DNA of 64,000 nucleotides from Clostridia bacterium (GTDB taxonomy: Bacteria > Bacillota > Clostridia > TANB77 > UBA1234): NCBI GenBank assembly GCA_017522765.1, contig JAFWYG010000005.1:571048-635047 (forward strand), given 5' to 3'. The notes below the pieces were generated by a model that saw only the letters and a list, made by a program, of their open reading frames with translations, was not told where the DNA came from and did no database searches. A program made the translations under genes and the position numbers. Positions 21,401-57,560 of this stretch are shown here, piece by piece (the stretch's first letter is position 1; every line of letters starts with the position of its first letter).

Positions 21401-21814
21401 TTAATATAGGATCCAGAAGATAAATGCACTGATATATCCATATATCTTAGCTAAAAATAGAACACCGAAAGCAATGCTTGAAGCTAAATTGTGGGTGCCC
21501 ACGCAAAGGAAGCCCACTAACAAGCAAGTTACAACCACTACAACACATGCCAAAGAATTAGCCATCATGCATTTGCCAGCACGCGTATTGCGGTGATCAC
21601 TTCCATGGACAAACAACGCTAACATGCACAGCGCCCACACCATTAAGGTTGCACCAAGCAATCTTACGAAGTCGTTGGATGCAGTGCCACTTTTGTAGAT
21701 ACTTACCACATCTTCAAGATACATGTTGGTAAGCCCCAAAAATGTGCTAACTAGCAAAGCAATGAATGCAATTGCAGGGAGCCAGCTTTCGTTTCTACGT
21801 TCGTTTTTTCTCAC
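21401..21814 (-). CDS. Small 4-TM membrane protein, hypothetical, in a high-GC islet
   Basis: GTG start after GGAGG. About 47% GC against a 28% background. Four predicted TM helices. Confidence 0.5.
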   Translation of the reverse strand: MRKNERRNESWLPAIAFIALLVSTFLGLTNMYLEDVVSIYKSGTASNDFVRLLGATLMVWALCMLALFVHGSDHRNTRAGKCMMANSLACVVVVVTCLLVGFLCVGTHNLASSIAFGVLFLAKIYGYISAFIFWILY

Positions 21815-28660: not shown

Positions 28661-29836
28661 TTAGTTCTGGATTTGGTTCCAGATTGTGCCTACCATTTGT
28701 GTTAGTTCGCAGTATTGTTCCTCTATACTTTGAAGGAGTGCGATTTGCACTCTGGCGCGCTCTAAATTTTTAGTTTCGCGATTGTACATCCTGCCATTTT
28801 CATCAGGAACCAAATTGCTGAAATACTTATCTCCATCGAGATAGTCTGTCAAAAATCTAAGTGCTTGCTCATACGTAATTATCCATGCTGCATCAACCAA
28901 CATATCCACTTCACGCTGAGTAATTACTTCTTTCATTGTGGTCAAAAGACCTTTTACCAAATATGCGAATTTTTGACTATCGAAATGAACTTTTTCTGCT
29001 TCAACAGATTCTTCACTTTCAGTGTTGCATGCATATCTTGCAGCATCGCCTAAATCGTAAAGAACTGTGCCTGGCATAGTGGTATCCAAATCGATGATTG
29101 TTTTTTCCAGACCAGTATATGTGTCAAATAATACATTGTTGAGCTTGGTATCGTTGTGCGATACACGCTTTGGAATTTTTCCTCTTTCCAAAGGATGAGT
29201 AATCGCATCTGCGCGATAGCTTCTCAACACCAAAAACGTGATCTCTTCCATGCATGTTTTGGAACGTTTATATTCATCATCAGCAAGGATGCCTTCAAAT
29301 GTTTTGAAACGTGCCGGCGTGTTGTGAAAATCTGGAATTGTTTCTACAATTTGCTCAAATTTTTCTTTTGGTAAGTCCGAAAGTTGGAGTGAAAACTTAC
29401 CAATCATTCTTCCAAGCGCCAAAAAATCTGCCTCAGATTCTGGTGTGTTCTTTGTTCTTGATTCAATGTAATCACAAACAGTCCAATACTTTTGAGTTTG
29501 AGCGTCAAAATAAACTGTCGGTGATTCGCAGGTCAACTCCCCAATAACCGGATGGAAATACAGGGTTGTTTCACCTTTGTTACGAATGTGTTCAGTAATA
29601 ATTTGTGTGTTGTTCATCATAGCGACAAAATTTTTGAAAACGTGCGTGTTGATTGCCCGAAAAATAAAGGCTTTAAAACCCGCACCCTCAAAAGAAATTG
29701 CCACCTTATATGTCTTGTTGATTCTGCCGTTGTCGATTGGTTCAATAGACATTATCTTGCCTGCCAATCCTTCAAAATGTTCCTGAACCCTCCGTATTTC
29801 CTGGAGTTGTTCTTGAGATATTCCCTTAATTACCAT
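28661..29836 (-). CDS. Phosphotransferase-family kinase (APH/NahK-like)
   Basis: HNDTKLNNVLFD catalytic-loop-like motif and IDLDTTMPG (DFG-like). About 42% GC. Confidence 0.55.
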   Translation of the reverse strand: MVIKGISQEQLQEIRRVQEHFEGLAGKIMSIEPIDNGRINKTYKVAISFEGAGFKAFIFRAINTHVFKNFVAMMNNTQIITEHIRNKGETTLYFHPVIGELTCESPTVYFDAQTQKYWTVCDYIESRTKNTPESEADFLALGRMIGKFSLQLSDLPKEKFEQIVETIPDFHNTPARFKTFEGILADDEYKRSKTCMEEITFLVLRSYRADAITHPLERGKIPKRVSHNDTKLNNVLFDTYTGLEKTIIDLDTTMPGTVLYDLGDAARYACNTESEESVEAEKVHFDSQKFAYLVKGLLTTMKEVITQREVDMLVDAAWIITYEQALRFLTDYLDGDKYFSNLVPDENGRMYNRETKNLERARVQIALLQSIEEQYCELTQMVGTIWNQIQN

Positions 29837-39804: not shown

Positions 39805-39997
39805 AAAATCAACTCCTTTATAGCTAGAATCGCTTTCGCGCAATTCCGCCAAATTACGATAAAATTATACCATATAGAATGTAGAAAATAAACCTTCGTA
39901 CCAACAATTCTTTCGTTGATACGACCTTTCTTTGACTTTTCAAGATTTCCTTGGTATAATCCACCCGTACTAAATATTTATAAGGAGGAACGCTCTA

Positions 39998-41101
39998 GTG
40001 AAAAATATTCATCGGATTGTATTAACCGGCGGACCGTGCGCTGGCAAAACTACTGCTTTCGCGCGGATTGAAACAGAACTCACAAATTTGGGCTATAAGG
40101 TTTTCGTTATGCCAGAAACTTTCACCGAGATGTACGGTGGCGGAATAAAGCTTCTCGAATACCCTAATGTAGAATTTCAAGACATGCTTTTTAGATTGCA
40201 GCGTGCTAAAGAACACATTTATGATGAAGCTGCTGAAAAGTGTGAAACTGAAAATGTAGTCATACTGTATGATCGCGGTCTGGTAGACGCTCTCGCATAT
40301 ACCTCTCCCGAAGATACTGAAGAAATCCTTCGTCGCAATAAGGTAACTATCAACACACTTATGAACATGTACGATGCTGTAATCCATATGGTTACTGCAG
40401 CAGATGGCGCAGCGGAAGCCTACATCGCTAACAAAGAAAACAACCCTGCGCGCTATGAATCTGTCGAAGACGCAATTAAGGTAGATCATGCTTTGAAAAA
40501 TGCGTGGACCGGTCATCCTCACCTTCGCATCGTGGATAATAGCACCGACTTTGCAAATAAGATTAATCGCATGATGGCTGAAATTTTTGCCGTTCTTGGC
40601 GAACCTGTGCCGTTGGAAATCGAAAAGAAATTCCTTATCAAAGCACCTGTTCTTGCAAACCTTTCTCAACATATTAATTTCTCTGAGCAGCAAATTATTC
40701 AGACTTATCTTTGTGACAACGGTAACGGCATCGAAAGACGTATTCGTATGCGTGGTACTGAAGGCGACTACACATTCTTCTACACCGAAAAGAAGTTTAT
40801 TCGTCCTGGTGTAAGAGTTGAAACCGAACGTAAGATTTCCGAAAGAGAATACATCAACTATCTGATGCAGACCGATTGTCAAAAACGTCAAATCCGAAAG
40901 ACTCGCTATTGTTTCATTTACAATAACCTGTACTATGAGCTGGACGTCTATCCCTTCTGGGAAGACAAAGCTATCCTCGAAATCGAGCTTTCTTCTGAAG
41001 CTTCGAACTTTGAAATTCCCGACTTCATTAGTCCTATCAAGGATGTTACTGATAACCCTGCATACAGCAATTATATGCTGGCAAGTAAAATCCCTGATTA
41101 A
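39998..41101 (+). CDS. P-loop NTPase (AAA_28/NadR-kinase-like) fused to a CYTH (triphosphate tunnel) domain
   Basis: Walker A GGPCAGKTT. The C-terminal domain has the CYTH hallmarks LEIEKKFLIK (ExExK), RIRMRG and a terminal EIELSSE. 45-53% GC. Own sigma-A-type promoter (TTGACT-17-TATAAT), GTG start after AAGGAGG, and a rho-independent terminator at 41119-41154. Confidence 0.7.
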   Translation: MKNIHRIVLTGGPCAGKTTAFARIETELTNLGYKVFVMPETFTEMYGGGIKLLEYPNVEFQDMLFRLQRAKEHIYDEAAEKCETENVVILYDRGLVDALAYTSPEDTEEILRRNKVTINTLMNMYDAVIHMVTAADGAAEAYIANKENNPARYESVEDAIKVDHALKNAWTGHPHLRIVDNSTDFANKINRMMAEIFAVLGEPVPLEIEKKFLIKAPVLANLSQHINFSEQQIIQTYLCDNGNGIERRIRMRGTEGDYTFFYTEKKFIRPGVRVETERKISEREYINYLMQTDCQKRQIRKTRYCFIYNNLYYELDVYPFWEDKAILEIELSSEASNFEIPDFISPIKDVTDNPAYSNYMLASKIPD

Positions 41102-41315
41102 TCACACAATTCATATCTATGATGCCCGCGCTATTTTAGCGTGGGCATCATTTTTCATTTGACATATCCTTCATCTATATATATAATGTTCGTAATAAAC
41201 AATCAAAAGTAAGGGATAGCCGATAAAAACAAATTAACATCATAATGCTAACGCAAAGTGGACCAAGCAAAGCTTGGTCCTTTGCCGTTTTATAAGACTT
41301 GTATTTTATATTTAC

Positions 41316-41393
41316 AATAAACCTTTATTTGAGAAGTGCGCTCGCAGGAACTTTAGTTCCGAGTACAGCACGGCGATGATAAAGGTTTATTGT
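41316..41393. repeat. Copy 2 (inverted orientation) of the ~80-bp hairpin element seen at 28501-28585
   Basis: caataaacctttat ... core (reverse complement of the copy-1 core, with 1 mismatch) ... ataaaggtttattg. A perfect 14-bp terminal stem with one compensatory pair change relative to copy 1. Confidence 0.6.
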
Positions 41394-41556
41394 TTTTATC
41401 TTTCTGTATAGTTTTTAAAAAGTAAGTACCCTTATGGTTCACTTTTGTAACAAACTTGTAATTTGAATACACAATATTCTTGTGATAGAGTTTAATCGGA
41501 AGTGTATATAACTAATTTATTCGACTATCAGTTTTTTCTGAAAGGAGGCAAATTCA

Positions 41557-42792
41557 ATGTGTGAGAAAACAAACACCACGTGGCGTGATCTTGCGCAGAA
41601 TCTTCATGAAGAAGGAACACCTGTAGAAGAAATTTGCAGTAAAGTGTATGAAGAATTTGGCTCGGCATTCAAGGCTAAGGACTCTTCTGCTCGGACTGTA
41701 AAGCGCTTTCTTCGTGAGACTTTTGGTGCCGCAAGCATCGCGCCTCCACCGAAGACTTTTGAGGAACAAGTATCCGAACGTCGCGACAAAATCTTAAGTT
41801 CGGAAGCCGCCAAACAAGACAAAAAGTTGCTTACCAAGATTGCTGTTACCGAAATGATTATTGACTCCATTCGCGATGTTGTTCGCGAACGTCCTTTTAG
41901 AGACATCAAACCCTTCGAGGTAAAAGTCGACCGCAACTATTCTGAAGAGACTATCGTGCTCATGATTTCCGACATTCAAGCGGGCACGTACATTTCTAAA
42001 GAATCCAGCGGTGGTCTTAATGAGTACAACTGGGATATCCTTGAGAAACAGTTTGTACAACTCTATAAAGGACTTGAAGAAATCGTCACTCGTCACAAAC
42101 AAGTCGCTCCCATCTCTTCTTTGCATGTGCACCTTATTGGCGACATCGTCGAGGGTTACGATATCTTCAAAGGACAAACCAGACAGATTGACCGCGAAAT
42201 TACCGAACAGGCAATTGGTGTTAAGGATTTGCTCTGCGAATTCCTTATCAAGACGCTCTACCTTTTCGATAAAGTTCACGTGGTAGCTGTTCCTGGTAAC
42301 CATGGTCGTATTGGTTCTAAGGGTGAAAACCTGCACTACGTAAGCTGGGACTACATCGTATACAAGTGGATGGAATCCGAGCTGAAACAGTATGACAGAA
42401 TCACCTGGCAAATCACAAAATCTTGGTGGCAGATGGACACAATCTATGGCTTCAACTTCTTGATGTTCCATGGTGATGACATTCGTTCTTGGCAAGGTAT
42501 TCCCTATTACGGTATCGACCGTGCAGCTAAGAACTATACTGAGCTTTTGCAGCTCATCGGACTCAACTACAACTACCTTGAGCTCGGTCATTTCCACGTT
42601 CCATCTGAACTTCCTGGTGTCACCACCGAAAAGTTTATCAACGGTTGTTGGCCTGGCGGCAGCTTATATTCCATGAAAGGACTTGTAACTGCAAACTATC
42701 CTGTACAAAAACTTTTTGCCGTTCATCCAACGCAAGGTGTAACCTATCGTTATCCTTTGCGTCTCACACTTCCGAAGAAAGGCAAGAAATAA
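41557..42792 (+). CDS. Calcineurin-like metallophosphoesterase with an N-terminal extension of about 130 aa
   Basis: Motifs LMISDIQAG, HLIGDIVEG (GDxxxRG-like), AVPGNHG (GNH), FHGDD and GHFH. About 43% GC. RBS GGAGG and the terminator aagactagagttgaaaagctctagtcttttt. Confidence 0.7.
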   Translation: MCEKTNTTWRDLAQNLHEEGTPVEEICSKVYEEFGSAFKAKDSSARTVKRFLRETFGAASIAPPPKTFEEQVSERRDKILSSEAAKQDKKLLTKIAVTEMIIDSIRDVVRERPFRDIKPFEVKVDRNYSEETIVLMISDIQAGTYISKESSGGLNEYNWDILEKQFVQLYKGLEEIVTRHKQVAPISSLHVHLIGDIVEGYDIFKGQTRQIDREITEQAIGVKDLLCEFLIKTLYLFDKVHVVAVPGNHGRIGSKGENLHYVSWDYIVYKWMESELKQYDRITWQITKSWWQMDTIYGFNFLMFHGDDIRSWQGIPYYGIDRAAKNYTELLQLIGLNYNYLELGHFHVPSELPGVTTEKFINGCWPGGSLYSMKGLVTANYPVQKLFAVHPTQGVTYRYPLRLTLPKKGKK

Positions 42793-42917
42793 TTTTCGAG
42801 TTGTCATATGATGAGAAAAGACTAGAGTTGAAAAGCTCTAGTCTTTTTGATTGAAAAACCTTCTTAAATATTGTATGCTATACGTATTATTAAATATTTG
42901 AGGAGGTATTATTTTAT

Positions 42918-43466
42918 ATGAAGAAAACATACGAAAACATTGAAAGAATACTTATTTCAAAAGATGAATTATCACAAAGAGTTAAAGAACTTGGCGCACA
43001 AATTACCAAAGATTTCGAAGGTGAAGAAGTTATTGTTGTTGGTGTCTTAAAAGGTTCTGTACTTTTTATGACTGATTTAATTAGAGAAATCGACCTTCCT
43101 ATGGATATTGATTTCATGGTAGTTTCAAGTTATGAAGGCTCTACTGTTTCTTCTGGAAATGTGAAAATTATTAAAGATGTAAACATCGATGTTGCAGGTA
43201 AAAACGTAATCATCGTAGAAGATATTATCGACTCAGGACGCACAATGCATAGTTTAAAAGAACTTTTTGAAGTTAGAGATTGTAAAGTGTTTAAAATATG
43301 CACTCTACTTGATAAAAAAGAAAGACGTAAAATTGAAATTGATGCCGACTATGTTGGCTTTGATGTACCTAACGAATTTGTTGTGGGATACGGCTTAGAC
43401 TACGATGGCAAATATAGAAACTTAGAAGATATCGGAGTATTAAAACCTGAAATATATACTAAATAA
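42918..43466 (+). CDS. hpt: Hypoxanthine phosphoribosyltransferase
   Basis: PRPP-binding motif VIIVEDIIDSGRTM and the Hpt family pattern. Low GC, so this is a native gene. Bidirectional terminator at 43468-43507. Confidence 0.9.
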   Translation: MKKTYENIERILISKDELSQRVKELGAQITKDFEGEEVIVVGVLKGSVLFMTDLIREIDLPMDIDFMVVSSYEGSTVSSGNVKIIKDVNIDVAGKNVIIVEDIIDSGRTMHSLKELFEVRDCKVFKICTLLDKKERRKIEIDADYVGFDVPNEFVVGYGLDYDGKYRNLEDIGVLKPEIYTK

Positions 43467-43509: not shown

Positions 43510-44217
43510 TTATTTGTTAAAAACTTGCATTGCTTTTGCGTAAATTTCATCGTGGATGTCATCGATAGTACGCAAGTTACCATTCTCATCAACGCAGTCG
43601 ATGATAGTCCAACCGTACTTCTTTGCCACCCAAAGAGATGTCTCGTACGCAGCTTTCAAATGCTCGTCGTCGGCTTCGTGAATGTCACGTTCGCCGCCAG
43701 AAGAAGTTTGTCCTCTTTTTGCCTTGAGAATTTTTGCTTGCTCATGAGGCATGTTCAGAAGGATAACTTCATCGTAATTAGGAATACCCATTATGCCATT
43801 TTCAAATTCGTACAACCAGTCGATAAGCTCTTGCTTCTCTTCTTCAGTCTTAAGCTTACACGCCTGGTGCAGAATGTTAGATGTGATGTATCTAGCCAAA
43901 AGTACGTTGCCACCAGCGCGGTAGGTTTCGCCCCACTCGCCTTTCATATATGATGCATATCTATCTACAGCGTAAAAGACTGAAGCTGTCTTCGCGCTGA
44001 CGTCAGACGCATTCGCACCGAAATCGCCGTTCAAATACTGTCTAACAAACCAGCTGCTATCAGACGGATAATCAGGGAAACTTGCCGTTGCAAACTTTAC
44101 ACCTTCAGCTTCCAATCTTTCACACAACTTGTTAAACTGTGTAGTTTTGCCACTGCAGTCAGTGCCTTCTATGACTATGATCTTACCCATGAGAAAATTC
44201 CTCCTTTTCAAATTCAT
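43510..44217 (-). CDS. Thymidylate kinase-like (dNMP kinase family) protein
   Basis: P-loop GKIIVIEGTDCSGKTTQ and a DRY-type motif (AVDRYASY). About 45% GC, an HGT signature. Own terminator upstream at 44330-44365. Confidence 0.65.
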   Translation of the reverse strand: MNLKRRNFLMGKIIVIEGTDCSGKTTQFNKLCERLEAEGVKFATASFPDYPSDSSWFVRQYLNGDFGANASDVSAKTASVFYAVDRYASYMKGEWGETYRAGGNVLLARYITSNILHQACKLKTEEEKQELIDWLYEFENGIMGIPNYDEVILLNMPHEQAKILKAKRGQTSSGGERDIHEADDEHLKAAYETSLWVAKKYGWTIIDCVDENGNLRTIDDIHDEIYAKAMQVFNK

Positions 44218-44327: not shown

Positions 44328-45431
44328 TTATTGTGCTCTCTTGTTTTTATTCTTTGCTTTCCAGAAAAGTCTCTTTATTCCAGTTAAAAACTTGGCCCAG
44401 TTTGTTTGCTCTTCTACATCAATTAAATATTTGACACCCGGCTCAACGCTAACAATTTCTTCTTTTTGATACACGCCTTTGCGAGCCGCATAAGTTTCTT
44501 CAGCTTCTGCTTGCATCACAGCATCTAATTCTTCAAGAAATTCCGCTACTGTTTTTTCACTAACATTTAGGTACTCTTGCATAAACGCCCAGTCTCCTTT
44601 TCCGTCTTTAATGTGTCTTGCTAATTTAAATAACTTCGTTTGCATATCTTCACCATAACTTGTACATTGTGAAAGCGCAACAGCAAACTTGTTTGCAAAC
44701 GCTGTTGAAAGTTCACCTGTATAAATTGTGTTGTCTATGTAATTAATTAATTTTTTAGTACCTGCTTCCAATAAAATTTCATTATCTTCAGAAACGTTAT
44801 AAATTTCAGCAAGTCCTGCAGAAATTTCTTTATGTCCAATTTCACCAGTTGTAGCTTTGCTCCAAATTGTTAAAAACATTGTTGCACATTTGTTTGGATC
44901 CTTAAAATGATTCTTTTTAACCGCGTGTGCCACAATCACTTCCGGACTCATGTTAAATACATTCTTTTCTTTCATATAATATATGAATGCATTTGAATAA
45001 TATACAGGTAAAAATTCTTTTAATAAAGTATATTCTCCATATTTTGATGCACCTTTTGCTTGCACACTCACCCAACGACGCATAAATTCATAAATCAAAT
45101 TATGAGCAGTATTAATTGTCCCATCAAAGTCAAACTTTGTTCTTTGTCTAATATATTCATTCAATAACGCACCTGATGAATCAATCTTAACAATAAATTC
45201 TTCTGTGAGATGATACACCATCGCGATATCTATTTTCATATCTGTACACGACACATCTATGTAACCATCGCGCACTTCGTCTTCGTAACGCATTAGTTTC
45301 AAAAAGATGTCCATGTTGTTTTGTACAAGTGAGTTATCTTTCAAAACTTGTACAGAACTTTTAATGTACTTCGCTATGGTCGCTTCACGTGCTGTTGCGA
45401 CATTTGTATTATCTGTACTTGTCTTTTGCAT
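44328..45431 (-). CDS. Hypothetical protein (367 aa)
   Basis: Long ORF with the terminator agagcacaataagtgctct+T6 downstream. No recognised motif. Confidence 0.5.
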   Translation of the reverse strand: MQKTSTDNTNVATAREATIAKYIKSSVQVLKDNSLVQNNMDIFLKLMRYEDEVRDGYIDVSCTDMKIDIAMVYHLTEEFIVKIDSSGALLNEYIRQRTKFDFDGTINTAHNLIYEFMRRWVSVQAKGASKYGEYTLLKEFLPVYYSNAFIYYMKEKNVFNMSPEVIVAHAVKKNHFKDPNKCATMFLTIWSKATTGEIGHKEISAGLAEIYNVSEDNEILLEAGTKKLINYIDNTIYTGELSTAFANKFAVALSQCTSYGEDMQTKLFKLARHIKDGKGDWAFMQEYLNVSEKTVAEFLEELDAVMQAEAEETYAARKGVYQKEEIVSVEPGVKYLIDVEEQTNWAKFLTGIKRLFWKAKNKNKRAQ

Positions 45432-45608: not shown

Positions 45609-46148
45609 TTAGATGAATTCCAGATTCCATTCAGTGGAACGCAGCGCCTTGAATTCCTCTTCGCCACGCTCCGCCATCTTGTATCTGTCGAGGTCAATGG
45701 TTTTAAGCCAGTGAACATAGCACGCAAAGCGCTTCAGCTCGTAATAAGGGAGCCACAGCTTTGCTGCGACATTAAGAACAATGTCAACGGTTCTGCCGTT
45801 CTCATTGATGTGCAGTGCGGGAGATGCCTGCTTACCCAGGAATGTGTAGTTTACGGTTGCTCCGTATCTCTTGGGAATCGGGGCATTTTCATGCACGCAC
45901 AGCTGACGCATCAGATGAATCAGATAGTAAAGCGGAAGCTTGGTTTCGCCGTTGCTACCACCTTCGCTCACCACTTCGGTGATTTTCGCCGTTGTCGGCT
46001 CCATCTTGAAAAGAATCTCATAGGTGCACGTGCTCCCGTCCTTCTTCTCGATGATTTTGGTTGCTCGAACCATTTTTTCGTTTCCTACGTTTGCTTTTTC
46101 CATGTTGTCATTCCTCCCATGGTTGTTAATCTTCGACTTTGTACTCAC
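45609..46148 (-). CDS. Hypothetical protein, paralog A of a tandem pair (about 50% GC)
   Basis: Alignable to the upstream paralog (TYEILFKMEP / EYEYKIHFHINP; PLYYLIHLMRQL / RPYMLLHLLTRVY; IPKRYGA / GFPRKAEA). Overlaps its partner by 23 bp. Complex terminator at 45555-45600. Confidence 0.55.
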   Translation of the reverse strand: MSTKSKINNHGRNDNMEKANVGNEKMVRATKIIEKKDGSTCTYEILFKMEPTTAKITEVVSEGGSNGETKLPLYYLIHLMRQLCVHENAPIPKRYGATVNYTFLGKQASPALHINENGRTVDIVLNVAAKLWLPYYELKRFACYVHWLKTIDLDRYKMAERGEEEFKALRSTEWNLEFI

Positions 46149-46674
46149 ATGTCCACATCTCAGCGTGAACGGGATTCAGAGTATGATAAGGACTTCTTTC
46201 ACCCTCAGCACACATCAGCTCATAGGTGGGTTCATCATAGAACTGCAAGTTCTGAATGTATCTCACCATCTTGAGAATGTCCGGTGTGCTCATCCAGTCA
46301 CCATTCACCTGCTGATCCAGTCTGTAACGCTTGCCAGACTTAAAAATCTTCAGTGCAGGATGGTGCAGATATTTGCCCTTGGGGTGCTGCTTCGGATTCT
46401 TTACATACTGTGCTTCAGCTTTGCGCGGGAAACCGATCTGTACATTGGTTTCTTCGTAAACGCGTGTCAGCAGGTGCAGCAGCATGTACGGCCGAATCGA
46501 AATCTTGCCTTTCTCAGAGACAAAACGCGGCAGGCCGTTTTCCGGGTTGATGTGAAAATGGATCTTGTACTCATACTCTTTTCCAGAGTTCGACTTGAGC
46601 ATCGCCGTGGCGTACACATGCAAACGCTTCTTGTCTTTGTCGGGGTTGCCAACTTTTCCTACATCAGCTTTCAT
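46126..46674 (-). CDS. Hypothetical protein, paralog B of the tandem pair (about 50% GC)
   Basis: RBS GCAGGAGG. Preceded by promoter-operator element R1. Confidence 0.55.
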   Translation of the reverse strand: MKADVGKVGNPDKDKKRLHVYATAMLKSNSGKEYEYKIHFHINPENGLPRFVSEKGKISIRPYMLLHLLTRVYEETNVQIGFPRKAEAQYVKNPKQHPKGKYLHHPALKIFKSGKRYRLDQQVNGDWMSTPDILKMVRYIQNLQFYDEPTYELMCAEGERSPYHTLNPVHAEMWTCEYKVED

Positions 46675-46755
46675 TGATAAAATTCCTCCTGCATTAGCAG
46701 ATTAGTCAAGAGCTTGTTGCCTTGCTTAGGATATATACAAGTATTCTTGCCGAGG

Positions 46756-46862
46756 TCATTATATCACGACTTTTAAATTATGTAAAGTGTCCCATTTTGG
46801 GACGGACTCTTCGTGGGACAAGTTGTCCCATAATAGGTCCGTCCCAAAATGGGACAAAAACA
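46756..46862 (-). promoter_or_regulatory. Promoter-operator element R1: nested palindromes (GTCCCA-N4-TGGGAC, GGACGGAC, GGGACAA-C-TTGTCCC) immediately upstream of a -35 TTACAT / -10 TATAAT promoter
   Basis: The 19-nt perfect inverted repeat gtcccattttgggacggac / gtccgtcccaaaatgggac flanks the 15-nt palindrome gggacaacttgtccc. About 90% identical to R2 at 47814-47922. Confidence 0.6.
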
Positions 46863-46892
46863 CGAGCGCCACAATATGTGACGCTCGCTTCC

Positions 46893-47753
46893 TTAATATG
46901 TGATTTCGTTGTAGGGTTTGCCCCAGTTGTTTCTTACCCATTCGTTCAACTTCTCAACACCCGCCTCATCAGTGCCAAACTTTCTGCGCATCATGAGAGC
47001 CATATCATTGAAGCTCATATCTTCAGTGAACTTCTCCGGCAACGGCAACTCCCACTTAAGTCTCATATGCTCATAAACACTTCTAAGAGCACAGGAAAGT
47101 TCAAAGACATTCTTTGTCTTGATTCCCCATGCTTTAACAGGTACATCAGGTTTCTTGTTCTGCATTTCATGAAGGCCTGCAGCCACAAAAAGTTCTGTGA
47201 AATACGCCCAGTTCCGACTGTTTCCCCAGCACTCGATTGCGAAGAGATATCCCTCAGCTCTTTCATAAAGCTTCAGACTAAGACCAGATTCCTTATCTTC
47301 CAGAAAGTTTGCGATGTTAAGGAGCTGTTTAGAAACTTCAGACGGCTTCTTGCCCCAAGGCTTTTTAAGTGCCGTACACAACTCCGAAAAAACTGGCTGC
47401 GTGTCTTCCTTTTTGTTAGGAAAAATACTAATATGTGTTTCGTACCAATTCGGGCCACTGCGAGGATTACCATTAAAGGAAAACATCAGCCCACAGCGCT
47501 TCATGTTGATTGCCGCATTCAGCAGCTTACAAAGATTGTCCCGATCGCTTTTTAATGCGACATCAAGATATGCGAAGTGATGATCGCCAGCATCACAGCC
47601 AACAGTCTCAACACCTTTTTTGTGACAAAGCCACAGAAGTTCCTCCAGCATTTTATTACCTTCAGCCCATTCCGGGATAGCCACTTTAAGCTCAGCTTCA
47701 CTCAGCCCACCGATTGGAATCGATTTGCCGCAGTTCCACTTCGACCTATTCAT
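46893..47753 (-). CDS. Hypothetical protein (286 aa, about 48% GC) bracketed by R1 and R2
   Basis: RBS GGAGAAGGAGG before ATG (MNRSKW). The plus-strand ORF 46722..47555 is low-complexity antisense junk. Confidence 0.55.
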   Translation of the reverse strand: MNRSKWNCGKSIPIGGLSEAELKVAIPEWAEGNKMLEELLWLCHKKGVETVGCDAGDHHFAYLDVALKSDRDNLCKLLNAAINMKRCGLMFSFNGNPRSGPNWYETHISIFPNKKEDTQPVFSELCTALKKPWGKKPSEVSKQLLNIANFLEDKESGLSLKLYERAEGYLFAIECWGNSRNWAYFTELFVAAGLHEMQNKKPDVPVKAWGIKTKNVFELSCALRSVYEHMRLKWELPLPEKFTEDMSFNDMALMMRRKFGTDEAGVEKLNEWVRNNWGKPYNEITY

Positions 47754-47813: not shown

Positions 47814-47922
47814 TGGATTATATCACGGCTTTTAATTTATGTAAAGTGTCCCAAAGGTGGACGGACTCTTCGTAGGACAATTTGTCCCGCAATGGGTCCG
47901 TCCCCTAGTGGGACAACAAAAA
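47814..47922 (-). promoter_or_regulatory. Promoter-operator element R2 (second copy of R1) driving the 46893..47753 gene
   Basis: Same palindrome architecture and the same -35/-10 (TTACAT ... GATATAAT). Followed upstream by the terminator gcgacttgagaaatcaagtcgc+T5 of the giant gene. Confidence 0.6.
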
Positions 47923-53914: not shown

Positions 53915-54679
53915 CTATTTAGTTGCAACAATTCCATAAAGTACGCGTTTCAAAAGTATCCCCTTATCAGATTTGAACCTTCTCACATACTCATCAAACA
54001 AATCTTTTTCAATCATAGCTTTGTGTTCAAAATCAGAATTATCAAACTCAGAAAAATCATCCAAAATTGGAGCCTTCAAAAGTAGTGCCATCAAATCATC
54101 TTCCGTTTCATAATACTCATCTTCCAAAATCTCAACACGTTCAATTTTAGAAAAACCAGCATCAACTAAATCTTGGTAGTCCTTCTCAGCAATAGAAATA
54201 GGATCATTAAAAGCTTGACCTCTACCAAAAAGTTCTTTCATCTCCCAACAATCTTTTTGATCAACACCTTCAATCACAAGCACGCCACCAGGCACAAGAG
54301 CATCATAAATCTGCTTAGCATGAATAACAGTGTGACGCGCAGAGATAAGATCAAAAGAATTGTTGGGCACCTTCATATTTAAATTGTCCATTTGAGCAAA
54401 CTTAACACGCTTGCCAGGATGCTTCTTCAAATTTTCATTAGCAGTCTTAATCATCTCACTAGAAAAATCCGTAGCAGTAACCATCCCAACTTCCGGATAA
54501 AACTCAAGCACCTTCTCTCCACCACCAGTGCCAAGATCAAGGCAATTAGAAGTCGCGTTAGTATGAGCACGTATCACATCATAAAACTCCCAATCAGTAT
54601 GTCTCACAGTCACACACTTGATGTCATCAAAATTCCAATTGCCAATTCTTTCGTAATAATCAAATTCATTTACTTGCAT
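53915..54679 (-). CDS. Class I SAM-dependent methyltransferase
   Basis: LDLGTGGGEKVLEF (motif I) and an acidic motif II/III spacing. RBS AAGGAGAG before the internal ATG (MQVNEF). Terminator downstream. Confidence 0.7.
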   Translation of the reverse strand: MQVNEFDYYERIGNWNFDDIKCVTVRHTDWEFYDVIRAHTNATSNCLDLGTGGGEKVLEFYPEVGMVTATDFSSEMIKTANENLKKHPGKRVKFAQMDNLNMKVPNNSFDLISARHTVIHAKQIYDALVPGGVLVIEGVDQKDCWEMKELFGRGQAFNDPISIAEKDYQDLVDAGFSKIERVEILEDEYYETEDDLMALLLKAPILDDFSEFDNSDFEHKAMIEKDLFDEYVRRFKSDKGILLKRVLYGIVATK

Positions 54680-54957
54680 AAAAATCTCTCCTTCATTCTT
54701 AGCAGCTTGTAACTTTAGATTTATTTTATCACAAGCTACACTCTCTTTAAATTTGGTTGTAAGTATAAAAAAAGAACCTCCCTTCACAAACAGCAAAAAC
54801 AACCATAATTTTGCTATGGTTAAAATTTTTGCCATTCATAAAGAAAGATTCTCAACATTCTTTATTATAATTTCTCCGGTAACATCACGCGAATGGACGA
54901 ATTGAGATGTTACGAATAGATTATAGCATGGATTTGTCAGTAAATCAATGTTTTAAA

Positions 54958-55784: not shown

Positions 55785-57560
55785 TTATAACAGCTTTCCA
55801 ATAAGTATGTCAAATTTTTTTATTGTTTCTTCATCATATAGAAACTCTTTTTTTTCTATTTTTTTCAGTACAGCTAAAGAATAGTATTTTTTTTCACCTT
55901 CATAATCTTTATTATTAATCCCAATTTCATTTCTATCTCTGTCTGAAAACAATGATTCTATGGTAATACTTTGTTCTTCTTTTGGAAGTCGTTCTGCATC
56001 TACAAATATAATATCATTTTCTTGTACTAAAAGTTTTTTTACCAGAACCTTATATTCATTCCTACCATCTCTATCCTGATCCAACAGAACTTTATATTTA
56101 TACCCCCACCCCATTAATATAGAAACTAAATTGTGAATGTTCGAAACTCCTGATGATGGAATTATATTACAGGTATCCTCGATTCCTTTTTGTATAAAAT
56201 ATGCTTTTAAATAATTAAAATCCGAAATTCCTTCTGTAATAATATTATTTTTTTCTGTACTCATTGCTGAAAAACTATACCCCATTTTCATTCCTATAGC
56301 TTCAAGAATTGGAGTAATAGTCTCTTGTTTTCCTGCCATAGAATGCGGCAAAGAATGGTATGCATTACTTATATTACTATTTTCATTTTCATCTTTTATT
56401 ATGGTTCTAACTCTATCTAAATGTTCTTGATATATCATAGAAGGATGTTGGGTTGTATATATTATTTGATTGTTTTTAGATACAAAATTTTCAAATAATT
56501 CTAGTATCATTTTTTGTGCATTAACATGTAAAAACACACCTGGTTCATCTAGCAAAACAACAAAATTTTCCAAATTTGTTTTTTGAGTTTGCGCAAGCAA
56601 CTGAATATAAAAGCTCAAATACCATTTCAGTCCATTACTTCTTTCGCTTAAATTCAGATATTTCTTGTTCGTTTTCACAAGAAAATTTATATATTCATTA
56701 TTAAAATTCATTCTTAATTCAACATTATCTTGTTTATAAAATTGATTAAATCCTTCCATAAATTTTTGAATTTTTTTATTGATTTCTTCCTGAAAATTAT
56801 ATTTATCGCCATCACAAGATAAAATCCAAAATCTTTTTACCTCATCCTTTTCAACACCTATTACTTTCAAAAAACTAGTCAACACATCATCATGCTTTCC
56901 GTTATCTAACACACTGTTTTTCGTATATTTTGATTCTAATTCTACATTTTTTAAAAATATAAAACGTGGTAATAAAGAATATATTGTTTTTATACGTTTA
57001 ATAAACTCTTCAAAAGTTTTTAAAAATTCTGAATATTTACTATTTCTACTCAAATTTTTAATCATAGTATCCATCATAACTGAATATACAAAAACTTTAT
57101 TCTCTATATTTTTAATATTTTCAATCATTTTATTCATAGTAATGTTATGACTCGGTTCACTAAAAGTAATTCCTTTAGATAGGTTTATCAATTCATTTTT
57201 ATAAAATTGTATATTATTATTTTTGCTTATTATTTCAGATAATCCACCTTCAAATTCAACAGCGCCATTTCCTTTTATTGTAAATTTTGTTTCTTTTTCC
57301 GAAAGATAAATTTCCTTTTCTTTTTCATAAGGGAATGCAATCATTGAAATTACAATTTCATCGTTTATATAATTTTTATTTTTGTCTTCATCATTTAAAT
57401 TTGAAAATCCATCAAAATTCAATTTACTAATAGCGTTAAGAAAATTACTTTTACCAGATTCATTTTTACCAACAATTGTTGTAATTTCTCCCAAATCCAT
57501 TCTATTATTTTCTTCTCCAAAAGACTTAAAATTTTTTATTTTTATAGATGTTATTTTCAT
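55785..57560 (-). CDS. OLD-family nuclease (N-terminal ABC-type ATPase plus C-terminal TOPRIM), class-1 architecture
   Basis: Walker A GKNESGKSN, signature-like LSERSNGLK, Walker B VVLLDEPGVFLH, and H-loop TTQHP. TOPRIM IITEGISD and LLDQDRDG. Confidence 0.8.
   Translation of the reverse strand: MKITSIKIKNFKSFGEENNRMDLGEITTIVGKNESGKSNFLNAISKLNFDGFSNLNDEDKNKNYINDEIVISMIAFPYEKEKEIYLSEKETKFTIKGNGAVEFEGGLSEIISKNNNIQFYKNELINLSKGITFSEPSHNITMNKMIENIKNIENKVFVYSVMMDTMIKNLSRNSKYSEFLKTFEEFIKRIKTIYSLLPRFIFLKNVELESKYTKNSVLDNGKHDDVLTSFLKVIGVEKDEVKRFWILSCDGDKYNFQEEINKKIQKFMEGFNQFYKQDNVELRMNFNNEYINFLVKTNKKYLNLSERSNGLKWYLSFYIQLLAQTQKTNLENFVVLLDEPGVFLHVNAQKMILELFENFVSKNNQIIYTTQHPSMIYQEHLDRVRTIIKDENENSNISNAYHSLPHSMAGKQETITPILEAIGMKMGYSFSAMSTEKNNIITEGISDFNYLKAYFIQKGIEDTCNIIPSSGVSNIHNLVSILMGWGYKYKVLLDQDRDGRNEYKVLVKKLLVQENDIIFVDAERLPKEEQSITIESLFSDRDRNEIGINNKDYEGEKKYYSLAVLKKIEKKEFLYDEETIKKFDILIGKLL

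Follow-up and report, generated by a model that had tools for sequence, protein, structure and literature searches.

Two GC-rich genes of apparently foreign and separate origin, a kinase-CYTH fusion and a phage-type metallophosphoesterase, side by side in a low-GC gut Clostridia chromosome

The window analysed here is a stretch of 64,000 nucleotides from a Clostridia bacterium (assembly GCA_017522765.1, contig JAFWYG010000005.1, positions 571,048 to 635,047), and our subject is a pair of neighbouring genes within it: gene 1, which codes for a P-loop kinase fused to a CYTH domain, and gene 2, which codes for a metallophosphoesterase of phage type. With a probability of roughly 70%, these are two unrelated foreign accessory genes which have come to lie side by side, each as its own transcription unit, in a variable stretch (downstream of infC and a NUDIX gene, around hpt) of a gut Clostridia chromosome of about 31% GC. 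Both are new members of known, functionally uncharacterised families. An earlier note, made from the sequence alone, had instead placed them together with a nearby thymidylate-kinase-like (tmk-like) gene in a horizontally acquired, nucleotide-themed set of the kind seen in phage defence or counter-defence modules.

Base composition and genomic setting

With 32.8% GC overall and a GC content at third codon positions (GC3) near 0.2, the window is a GC-poor piece of chromosome; nearly all its genes lie on the minus strand, and the closest species-level genomes are those of uncultured Eubacteriales/Clostridia of animal guts. The open reading frames (ORFs) of both genes were verified at their coordinates on the plus strand, between a minus-strand block and hpt:

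up to 39852, minus strand: flanking block of infC, a pentapeptide-repeat gene, ABC-F, NUDIX and a zinc-ribbon membrane protein, the last ending at 39852
39998-41101, plus strand: gene 1, 367 aa, GC 41.8%, GC3 0.41, kinase-CYTH protein
41557-42792, plus strand: gene 2, 411 aa, GC 44.6%, GC3 0.47, phage-type metallophosphoesterase
42918-43466, plus strand: hpt (hypoxanthine phosphoribosyltransferase; TIGR01203 216 bits against a cut-off of 150), GC 31%, GC3 0.21, host-like
43510-44217, minus strand: tmk-like gene, GC 43%, GC3 0.46, GC-rich, of a common Clostridial family
44328-45431: host-like gene of 367 aa, GC3 0.27

Against a background of 1.1-kb windows (mean 31.7% GC, standard deviation 3.2, maximum 39.5), gene 1 stands out with z = 3.2 and gene 2 with z = 4.0, and the 41.8% of gene 1 is reached by no background window. 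The value of 45-53% GC previously given for gene 1 was too high, as windows of 300 bp along the gene range from 39 to 46%. Flanking genes have a GC3 of 0.18-0.25 as opposed to 0.41 and 0.47 in genes 1 and 2; the excess therefore falls at synonymous sites and is no effect of amino-acid composition. An atypical composition of this kind (GC3 0.41-0.47 against about 0.2) is what is expected of horizontally acquired DNA.

The genes are thus GC-rich, as the earlier note held, but the "islet" that it described is no continuous block. The spacer between genes 1 and 2, which is indeed 455 bp long, has 32% GC, hpt lies between gene 2 and the tmk-like gene, the next one rich in GC, and the gene at 44328-45431 is again host-like, so that the region is a mosaic of separate GC-rich genes, with three further family-less GC-rich ORFs at 45609-47753. 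No tRNA was found in the window, no flanking direct or inverted repeats (internal promoter duplications only) and no integrase among the ORFs scanned at 36-57.5 kb.

Isolated GC-rich ORFs also occur elsewhere in the window, namely a 137-aa membrane protein at 21401-21814 (minus strand, GC3 0.44) and an APH-family kinase at 28661-29836 (minus strand, GC3 0.37). The same pattern is seen in related genomes, e.g. a Band_7 gene of 42-49% GC in a 28% background (L001/L019; the labels L001-L146 denote the related genome and phage loci that were compared, the scan of loci having been run with the 21 closer homologs). Such scattered spikes, each confined to one gene, are characteristic of this lineage as a whole.

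The kinase-CYTH protein

Gene 1 begins with a GTG codon, 9 nt after an AGGAGG ribosome-binding site (39983-39988). Its product joins an N-terminal P-loop domain, AAA_28/thymidylate-kinase-like, to a C-terminal CYTH triphosphate-tunnel domain that is intact:

39998-40597, plus strand: kinase domain (residues 1-200), AAA_28/thymidylate-kinase-like, with Walker A motif GGPCAGKT and motif D92-R93-G94
40607-41092, plus strand: CYTH domain (residues 204-365), with E207-x-E209-x-K211, R248/R250/R252, E275/E277, K301/R303, E314/D316 and E328/E330

The kinase half is recognised by Pfam AAA_28 (PF13521; 72.1 bits against a cut-off of 27, residues 6-187), besides weak thymidylate-kinase matches, and the PHROGs assign residues 4-126 to thymidylate kinase and residues 206-365 to a family annotated as unknown. 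For the tunnel half, a family profile of 43 homologs matches the triphosphate tunnel metalloenzyme (TTM) of Nitrosomonas europaea, NeuTTM (PDB 3typ/2fbl), over its full length with an E-value of 1e-12, and many homologs at 50% identity contain the Pfam CYTH family PF01928. Family profiles were needed here, as searching the PDB with the single protein sequences of genes 1 and 2 gave nothing useful. In the AlphaFold2 model of gene 1 (mean predicted local distance difference test score (pLDDT) 91.8, predicted template-modelling score (pTM) 0.88), residues 206-349 are all beta-strand; Foldseek aligns the model to NeuTTM (E 4e-10, template-modelling (TM) score about 0.65-0.68, 28% identity) and to thymidylate kinases (TM 0.68), with deoxynucleoside kinases as further fold neighbours and the vaccinia capping enzyme listed weakly.

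The motifs GGPCAGKT, DRG, ExExK (E207-I-E209-K-K211), RxRxR, ExE and KxR are invariant or nearly so in the 43 homologs, and the conserved tunnel residues comprise R248, R250, R252, R273, K301, R303, E275, E277, E314, D316, E328 and E330. The protein thus has the ExExK signature of the CYTH/TTM superfamily and, in the predicted structure, its beta-barrel tunnel with Arg/Lys and Glu/Asp residues. Judged by these residues the tunnel looks catalytically competent. It would hydrolyse, in a metal-dependent manner, a small molecule bearing a triphosphate, be it inorganic or part of a nucleoside or other organic compound, and the kinase may phosphorylate a substrate that resembles a nucleoside or nucleotide.

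The family is very large, mostly chromosomal and Clostridial: more than 6,700 homolog clusters were found among 8,000 candidates scored. Most homologs have 360-370 aa and some carry an additional N-terminal XRE-type helix-turn-helix (HTH) domain (HTH_3/HTH_19). A literature search on CYTH with AAA_28 or NadR returned nothing specific. The idea that gene 1 is itself a phage-borne gene was rejected: eight phage records match it, all partially and in the CYTH half only. There are 27 matches in viral contigs, several of them at contig ends, where they probably reflect host flanks of predicted proviruses.

The metallophosphoesterase

Gene 2 is preceded by an AGGAGG ribosome-binding site at 41543-41548 and its product consists of two parts:

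41557-41886, plus strand: N-terminus (residues 1-110), a three-helix HTH-like bundle and a long helix of about 40 residues (68-108)
41938-42771, plus strand: phosphoesterase domain (residues about 128-405), with D139, G195-D196, G247-N248-H249, H305 and G344-H345-x-H347

The protein matches PHROG 284 ("exonuclease") almost from end to end (E 2.2e-39, 136.5 bits, residues 65-394 against 61-385 of the 398 profile positions). The residues named above, which make up the superfamily motifs, are invariant in 44 homologs. Taken with the AAA_28 and NeuTTM matches of gene 1, this bears out the domain calls of the earlier note, i.e. a P-loop kinase-CYTH fusion next to a calcineurin-like phosphoesterase. 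Motif I (41971-41979, codons 139-141) reads D-I-Q, and Q141 is invariant in the 21 sequences of the chromosomal clade; in distant relatives of gene 2, as well as in DP1 (the small subunit of archaeal PolD, a 3'-5' proofreading exonuclease), this motif is D-x-H.

The AlphaFold2 model (mean pLDDT 89.5) shows the three-helix bundle, the long helix and a phosphoesterase sandwich. Its best solved structure in Foldseek is DP1 of the DNA polymerase PolD (E 8e-12), followed by LpxH, Rv0805 and Mre11, and the search of the PDB with the family profile likewise returns PolD DP1 (E 2.5e-4). Far better than these are the full-length fold matches with predicted phage proteins in BFVD (E 2e-28, TM 0.65), including the N-terminal helices, and several of these phage proteins carry the name "DNA polymerase II small subunit". 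The N-terminus appears to be HTH-like, as suggested by the predicted fold and by HTH matches in a few homologs.

From these likenesses we infer that gene 2 encodes a DP1/Mre11-type enzyme that depends on Mn2+/Mg2+ and acts as DNA exonuclease or phosphodiesterase, whose helical N-terminus would bind DNA or a partner protein.

Phage and chromosomal copies of the phosphoesterase

A profile search of 1.84 billion representatives detected 8,833 relatives of gene 2 at E <= 1e-3 and 3,928 at E <= 1e-30. With tblastn, 329 phage records match gene 2, and at least 104 viral contigs carry a copy. The nearest phage homologs (44-47% identity) lie in phage contigs of 40-46 kb, beside terminase genes and a DUF7768 gene; the phage copies of L030 and L031 are upstream of terminase. 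The DUF7768 gene (about 110-130 aa) adjoins the phosphoesterase in L030, L031, L027 and L037, before terminase where this is annotated; the solo chromosomal copies have no such neighbour. In phiCD211 the phosphoesterase gene (PHICD211_20178) is followed by one ORF, TerL and portal, and SPbeta-like phages carry, in this order, HU, YonK, phosphoesterase, a few ORFs and portal. The position directly after a YonK-family gene suggests that the SPbeta phosphoesterase corresponds to YonJ, a name which we presume from the SPbeta gene order; a literature search on YonJ returned nothing specific. In the distant viral contigs (25-30% identity), 8 out of 21 downstream ORFs code for family-A DNA polymerases, with SNF2 helicases, ParB or RecA among the other large neighbours. 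The phage setting of the phosphoesterase is consequently one of DNA transactions and not of nucleotide pools.

In chromosomes the phosphoesterase is held by 14 species-level genomes (L015-L028), 13 of them low in GC, at several loci. Solo copies lie beside DUF2207 and SLH-domain genes (L001, L019), between AIM24-family and Lactamase_B-family genes (L022/L029) or next to an AcrVA2-like gene (L009, L017, L018). The phosphoesterase has the GC content of its contig in L027 and in the two phage contigs L030 and L031. In genomes with about 31% GC, by contrast, it stands out alone with a raised GC content at 12 chromosomal loci (0.37-0.47 against 0.30-0.34). Gene 2 probably descends from the phage family PHROG 284 and has been kept as a solo host gene in this lineage.

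Linkage of the two genes and selection

The two genes are adjacent only in L011 (gene 1 87% identical), L015 (gene 1 93%, gene 2 97%) and L012/L016 (one assembly with a contig break between the two, 77% and 92%); at the 17 other chromosomal loci examined they never occur together. The kinase-CYTH gene occurs alone between a B12 radical-SAM (S-adenosylmethionine) gene and lexA in L005, L144 and L146. In L143 and L145 it is again alone, flanked upstream by a release-factor gene (PCRF/RF-1 domains) and downstream by a YitT-family gene. The phosphoesterase occurs alone in L001, L009 and L017-L029. Looking for co-occurrence in other genomes, as had been advised, therefore speaks against a set: co-occurrence with co-orientation across divergent genomes, the mark of a two-gene module, was not observed, and the two genes are set apart by a terminator, an additional promoter-hairpin unit and 455 bp.

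A defence or counter-defence role finds no support either, as no family of PADLOC-DB 2.0 matches the protein of gene 1 or gene 2 at E <= 0.01 and the adjacency is limited to the closest relatives. The tmk-like protein gives a weak match to the candidate model PDC-M51B (E 4.5e-6). This protein is 50% identical to one named thymidylate kinase by its source, from Hungateiclostridium (Clostridium) thermocellum, and the true start of its gene is probably 9 codons downstream, its relatives being 226 aa long. The tmk-like gene belongs to a common Clostridial family, and the phosphoesterase resembles phage DNA nucleases and not enzymes of nucleotide metabolism; the nucleotide theme of the proposed set is not supported.

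Both genes are under strong purifying selection. The ratio of nonsynonymous to synonymous substitution rates (dN/dS) is 0.06-0.09 for gene 1, 0.02-0.045 for gene 2 and 0.03-0.10 for hpt, and the synonymous divergence of the two genes to L015 and L016 (0.65-1.0) equals that of hpt. Together, these values indicate that the genes have been inherited with the locus within the genus and kept functional.

Origin of the high GC content

Kinase-CYTH homologs of other lineages match the GC content of their flanks within 0.03, over a range from 27% to 62%, so a high GC content is no property of the family. In a neighbour-joining tree the GC-rich copies (window, L011, L012, L015, L005 and L146) form one clade, and its sister clade includes L144, which has a host-like GC3 of 0.22 and occupies the same radical-SAM/LexA locus as L005. 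The kinase-CYTH genes of L005 (10001-11104, GC3 0.40) and L144 (8001-9110, GC3 0.22) are 70% identical, whereas their flanking proteins are 82-97% identical (ClpC 95%, LexA 97%). The simplest reading of this difference is that a native gene was replaced in place by a GC-richer relative, and the GC-rich version has probably spread horizontally within this bacterial group.

The horizontal acquisition of both genes, which the earlier note had proposed, is well supported: GC3 is twice that of the neighbours, and a GC-rich copy sits at a locus where a relative has a GC-poor one. Ordinary core genes, with homologs of matching GC present at this locus throughout the relatives, are not what we find. 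As for the source, the closest homologs could be traced as suggested, and they belong to the same low-GC group or to short contigs; the outside donor that had been envisaged was not among them.

Transcription signals and elements of the spacer

The promoters and terminators described here are matches to consensus, and promoter-like sites are not enriched in the region (16 found against 22 expected).

39932-39960, plus strand: gene 1 promoter-like site, TTGACT, 17 nt, TG-extended TATAAT; 11 of 12 consensus matches
41119-41151, plus strand: gene 1 terminator-like hairpin, 15 pairs, 8 of them G-C, followed by TTTTTCATTT
41159-41295, plus strand: promoter and hairpin unit with a perfect TTGACA-17-TATAAT (41159-41187)
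41316-41391, no strand assigned: near-perfect palindromic hairpin element, 76 nt, single copy in the window
41445-41491, plus strand: gene 2 proximal control region, TTGTAA-N5-TTGTAA (41445-41461) abutting a -35-like TTGAAT (41463-41468)
41483-41491, plus strand: gene 2 -10-like TAGAGT, TG-extended, after a 17-nt spacer from TTGAAT
42815-42848, plus strand: gene 2 terminator-like hairpin, 15-bp stem and T run; fold z-score -6.4 for 42785-42917

Both genes thus have sites of consensus level for a promoter and a terminator of their own, as the earlier note had it, the site before gene 2 being a putative promoter. A promoter region which occurs in duplicate elsewhere in the window (see Neighbouring genes) has 85% similarity to positions 39949-39968, the -10 region of the kinase-CYTH promoter.

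About 75 nt after the promoter at 41159-41187 lies a hairpin of 9 bp of G+C with a T-rich tail (41260-41295). L015 and L011 keep this layout, as do L016 and L013, where the sequence has diverged. The unit is a candidate for a transcript of about 100 nt or for the start of a long attenuated leader of gene 2, with a promoter that may not serve gene 2 directly. Rfam gave no match in the whole window at the gathering score, nor in 39850-42950 at E <= 1, indicating that the long spacer is no known riboswitch or small RNA. The palindrome at 41316-41391 is also present in L011, with its centre inverted, and absent from the 97%-related L015, i.e. it is insertion/deletion-polymorphic.

The last 140 nt before the start of gene 2 are nearly invariant in five relatives in which the surrounding spacer has diverged. 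TGTAAY..TGTAAT-TTGA-like motifs are found upstream of phosphoesterase orthologs at other loci (L009, L017, L018), and since these loci are unrelated the operator-like site seems to travel with the gene. By its sequence, 41445-41491 could act as promoter and operator, and the product of gene 2 may repress its own promoter via the TTGTAA direct repeat.

Alternative explanations

Several points weigh against two independent foreign genes of the kind described above. The substrates of both proteins are guesses. Pfam gives less than the fold matches do: neither the full protein of gene 1 (E <= 0.01) nor its isolated C-terminal 164 aa (E <= 1) matches PF01928, Metallophos (PF00149) scores 18.8 bits on gene 2, below its cut-off of 21.5, and no significant Pfam family was found on the N-terminal 115 aa of gene 2 and of three phage homologs. 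Motif I of gene 2 has Gln at the position of the usual metal-binding His, so its first metal site or catalysis could be altered. The adjacency has been kept in the genus at a synonymous divergence near 1, and a lineage-specific functional link between the two genes is possible. No donor was found, the nearest homologs all being from the same low-GC group or short contigs, and GC3 values of 0.34-0.54 persist in orthologs with saturated synonymous sites, which is the one real oddity and is only loosely explained by repeated transfer.

Could the whole stretch at 40-48 kb be the decayed remnant of a prophage or other mobile element, with both genes as leftover cargo? The overwhelmingly phage-borne nature of the phosphoesterase family fits this, as do the AcrVA2-like gene beside the orthologs of L009, L017 and L018, the four family-less GC-rich ORFs of the stretch, with two upstream regions that duplicate each other, and a gene content that varies among close relatives. 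We nevertheless regard it as unlikely. An integrase, a tRNA and flanking direct repeats were not found in the ranges given above, structural or terminase genes are not present, and hpt, of host composition, and a gene of 34% GC are interleaved. The low dN/dS (0.02-0.09) and the co-divergence with hpt point to maintenance and not to decay, the kinase-CYTH gene is no phage gene (its eight phage matches being partial and confined to CYTH), and the different loci suggest separate insertion histories for the two genes.

A bolder version of the two-gene reading, which we put forward as speculation and hold to be unlikely, is that a family-level group of gut Clostridia with about 31% GC has domesticated an HTH-metallophosphoesterase of phage replication or packaging regions. 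It would now be a host gene that stands alone and regulates itself (dN/dS 0.02-0.05), with the operator-like TGTAAY repeat travelling along, and may act as a single-gene nuclease against phages or mobile elements or as a repair nuclease. Together with the kinase-CYTH gene it would belong to a circulating pool of GC-rich genes, one of which has replaced a native ortholog, and their synonymous GC would be actively maintained instead of being a mere relic of the donor.

It is improbable that the genes are vertically inherited core genes which owe their high GC content to a force acting on them specifically, be it biased gene conversion at a hot spot of recombination or selection on codons or mRNA. 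The locus is kept in the genus with synonymous divergence equal to that of hpt and strong purifying selection, GC3 stays at 0.34-0.54 despite saturated synonymous sites, and the GC-rich kinase-CYTH copies are one clade nested among low-GC relatives of the same group, all of which would fit. However, the same genes are found at three or more loci, L005 and L144 differ far more in kinase-CYTH than in their flanks, the phosphoesterase has phage relatives with contig-matched GC, and genes of the ribosomal neighbourhood such as infC, with a GC3 of 0.21, show that translational selection does not favour GC here.

We find quite improbable the view that gene 1, gene 2 and the tmk-like gene are an acquired nucleotide module, serving either defence by nucleotide depletion or a counter-defence derived from phages. 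Its attraction lies in three GC-rich genes within 4.2 kb, an arrangement kept in L011, L015 and L016, an OLD-family nuclease 13 kb away, and the CYTH triphosphatases of jumbo phages, which have been proposed to degrade nucleoside triphosphates (PMC7824862). Yet outside the closest relatives each gene stands solo at other loci, neither main protein has a PADLOC match, and the genes form separate transcription units, with the host-like hpt and a terminator intervening and the tmk-like gene on the opposite strand. Moreover, the phosphoesterase groups with DNA nucleases of phage replication and packaging regions, and the kinase-CYTH family is mainly chromosomal, with a GC content that matches the host elsewhere.

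Pnkp of Clostridium thermocellum contains kinase and metallophosphoesterase domains, and RNA triphosphatases of the TTM type exist. By analogy the pair might be a nucleic-acid end-healing duo of polynucleotide kinase plus triphosphatase and phosphoesterase, but beyond this likeness of domains and the weak Foldseek match to the vaccinia capping enzyme the idea has hardly any credit with us, given that linkage is not conserved, the kinase resembles small-molecule thymidylate and deoxynucleoside kinases instead of Pnk, and no ligase or Hen1 partner lies nearby.

Neighbouring genes

Beyond the gene at 44328-45431 the window holds the following ORFs and elements:

45609-46148, minus strand: GC-rich ORF of 179 aa, GC3 about 0.6, overlapping the next
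46126-46674, minus strand: GC-rich ORF of 182 aa, GC3 about 0.6
46758-46860 and 47817-47919, minus-strand upstream regions: duplicated promoter region of 103 nt, 84% identity
47952-53774, minus strand: protein of 1,940 aa with Pro/Glu/Lys/Ile-rich repeats, three SpoVK/CbbX-type AAA modules with AAA_lid_6, and a C-terminal FtsH-like Peptidase_M41
53915-54835, minus strand: SAM methyltransferase with a mad2-like match
55785-57560, minus strand: OLD-family ATPase-nuclease (PADLOC Old, E 8e-27)

Between the products of the overlapping 179-aa and 182-aa ORFs there is a weak similarity (22% identity, E 0.003); they have no match in Pfam, PHROG, NCBIfam or PADLOC; the relative L016 lacks one or both. 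The duplicated region precedes this ORF pair and an ORF of 286 aa, with GTCCCA-N4-TGGGAC palindromes ahead of TTTACA-17-TG-TATAAT, and the family-less GC-rich genes which have it probably share a regulator. The 1,940-aa protein is of an unusual giant architecture and is kept in L015 and L016. The OLD-family gene lies, with the methyltransferase gene, 11-13 kb downstream, and its match means that at least one real defence gene is present in the neighbourhood.

Significance

The two genes show that adjacency and a common "phosphate" theme do not make a system here, tempting as that reading was. The kinase-CYTH genes reveal in bacteria a very large uncharacterised family that joins a P-loop kinase to a catalytically intact triphosphate tunnel, a tandem which has been called unique to plants (PMC9582702). 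PHROG 284, in turn, has thousands of members with a conserved position beside replication or terminase genes and appears as a solo host gene in one lineage. Finally, a GC-richer relative appears to have taken the place of a native gene at the radical-SAM/LexA locus, which makes this locus a clean case of such an exchange.

Comparison with known systems

The C-terminal 160 residues of gene 1 align end to end with NeuTTM (NE1496) and share its tunnel motifs; the Nitrosomonas protein, one of the single-domain bacterial CYTH/TTM triphosphatases, stands alone with about 150 aa, whereas the tunnel of gene 1 is fused to an N-terminal P-loop kinase. NadR consists of HTH, nicotinamide mononucleotide adenylyltransferase and AAA_28 ribosylnicotinamide kinase. 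It has the AAA_28 kinase domain in common with gene 1, and some gene 1 relatives are likewise HTH-plus-enzyme proteins, mirroring the NadR architecture, which points to metabolite handling or sensing and not to immunity. Gene 1 differs in having CYTH in place of the adenylyltransferase, in lacking the HTH in the protein of the window, and in the fold neighbours of its kinase, which are thymidylate kinases.

The Arabidopsis proteins AtTTM1/TTM2 (PDB 7z67) have the identical order of domains, P-loop kinase then TTM, and are matched by gene 1 in Foldseek (E 2e-9). The plant kinase, however, is of the uridine/cytidine-kinase type while that of gene 1 is AAA_28/thymidylate-kinase-like, and the gene 1 family profile misses 7z67 at E <= 1. 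The domains are oriented differently, as judged by a TM score of only 0.25 and a root-mean-square deviation of 20.8 A between gene 1 and 7z67. In addition, AtTTM1 has lost the catalytic glutamates of its tunnel (PMC9582702), which are invariant in the gene 1 family, and gene 1 has neither a coiled coil nor a membrane anchor, its protein stopping at residue 367 with no tail. The bacterial kinase-CYTH family looks like an independent fusion and no member of the plant TTM1/2 type.

For gene 2, PolD DP1 is the best solved-structure match to the phosphoesterase domain, with an alignment confined to the core (TM about 0.44). Gene 2 lacks the oligonucleotide/oligosaccharide-binding (OB) fold, has a helical N-terminus and reads DxQ instead of DxH in motif I, and no DP2 partner was seen among the neighbouring genes scanned at 36-57.5 kb; the relationship is one of superfamily and not of orthology. 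The sole tested phage analogue that we found is gp47 of mycobacteriophage Bxb1, a phosphoesterase required for phage DNA replication with weak 3'-5' exonuclease activity, which moonlights as directionality factor of the serine integrase (PMC11795197). It is likewise a phage calcineurin-like protein with a DP1/Mre11-like fold, encoded in a replication module, but has 255 aa and no N-terminal helical domain. A relationship of gene 2 to gp47 itself was rejected, with an hhalign probability of 3% and nothing shared past the GHxH motif.

The phage copies of PHROG 284 come closest to gene 2, with a full-length match, the same predicted fold and metal-ligand motifs in common. They lie in replication modules or directly upstream of terminase and are at most 47% identical to gene 2, which stands solo in the chromosome, with no phage neighbours.

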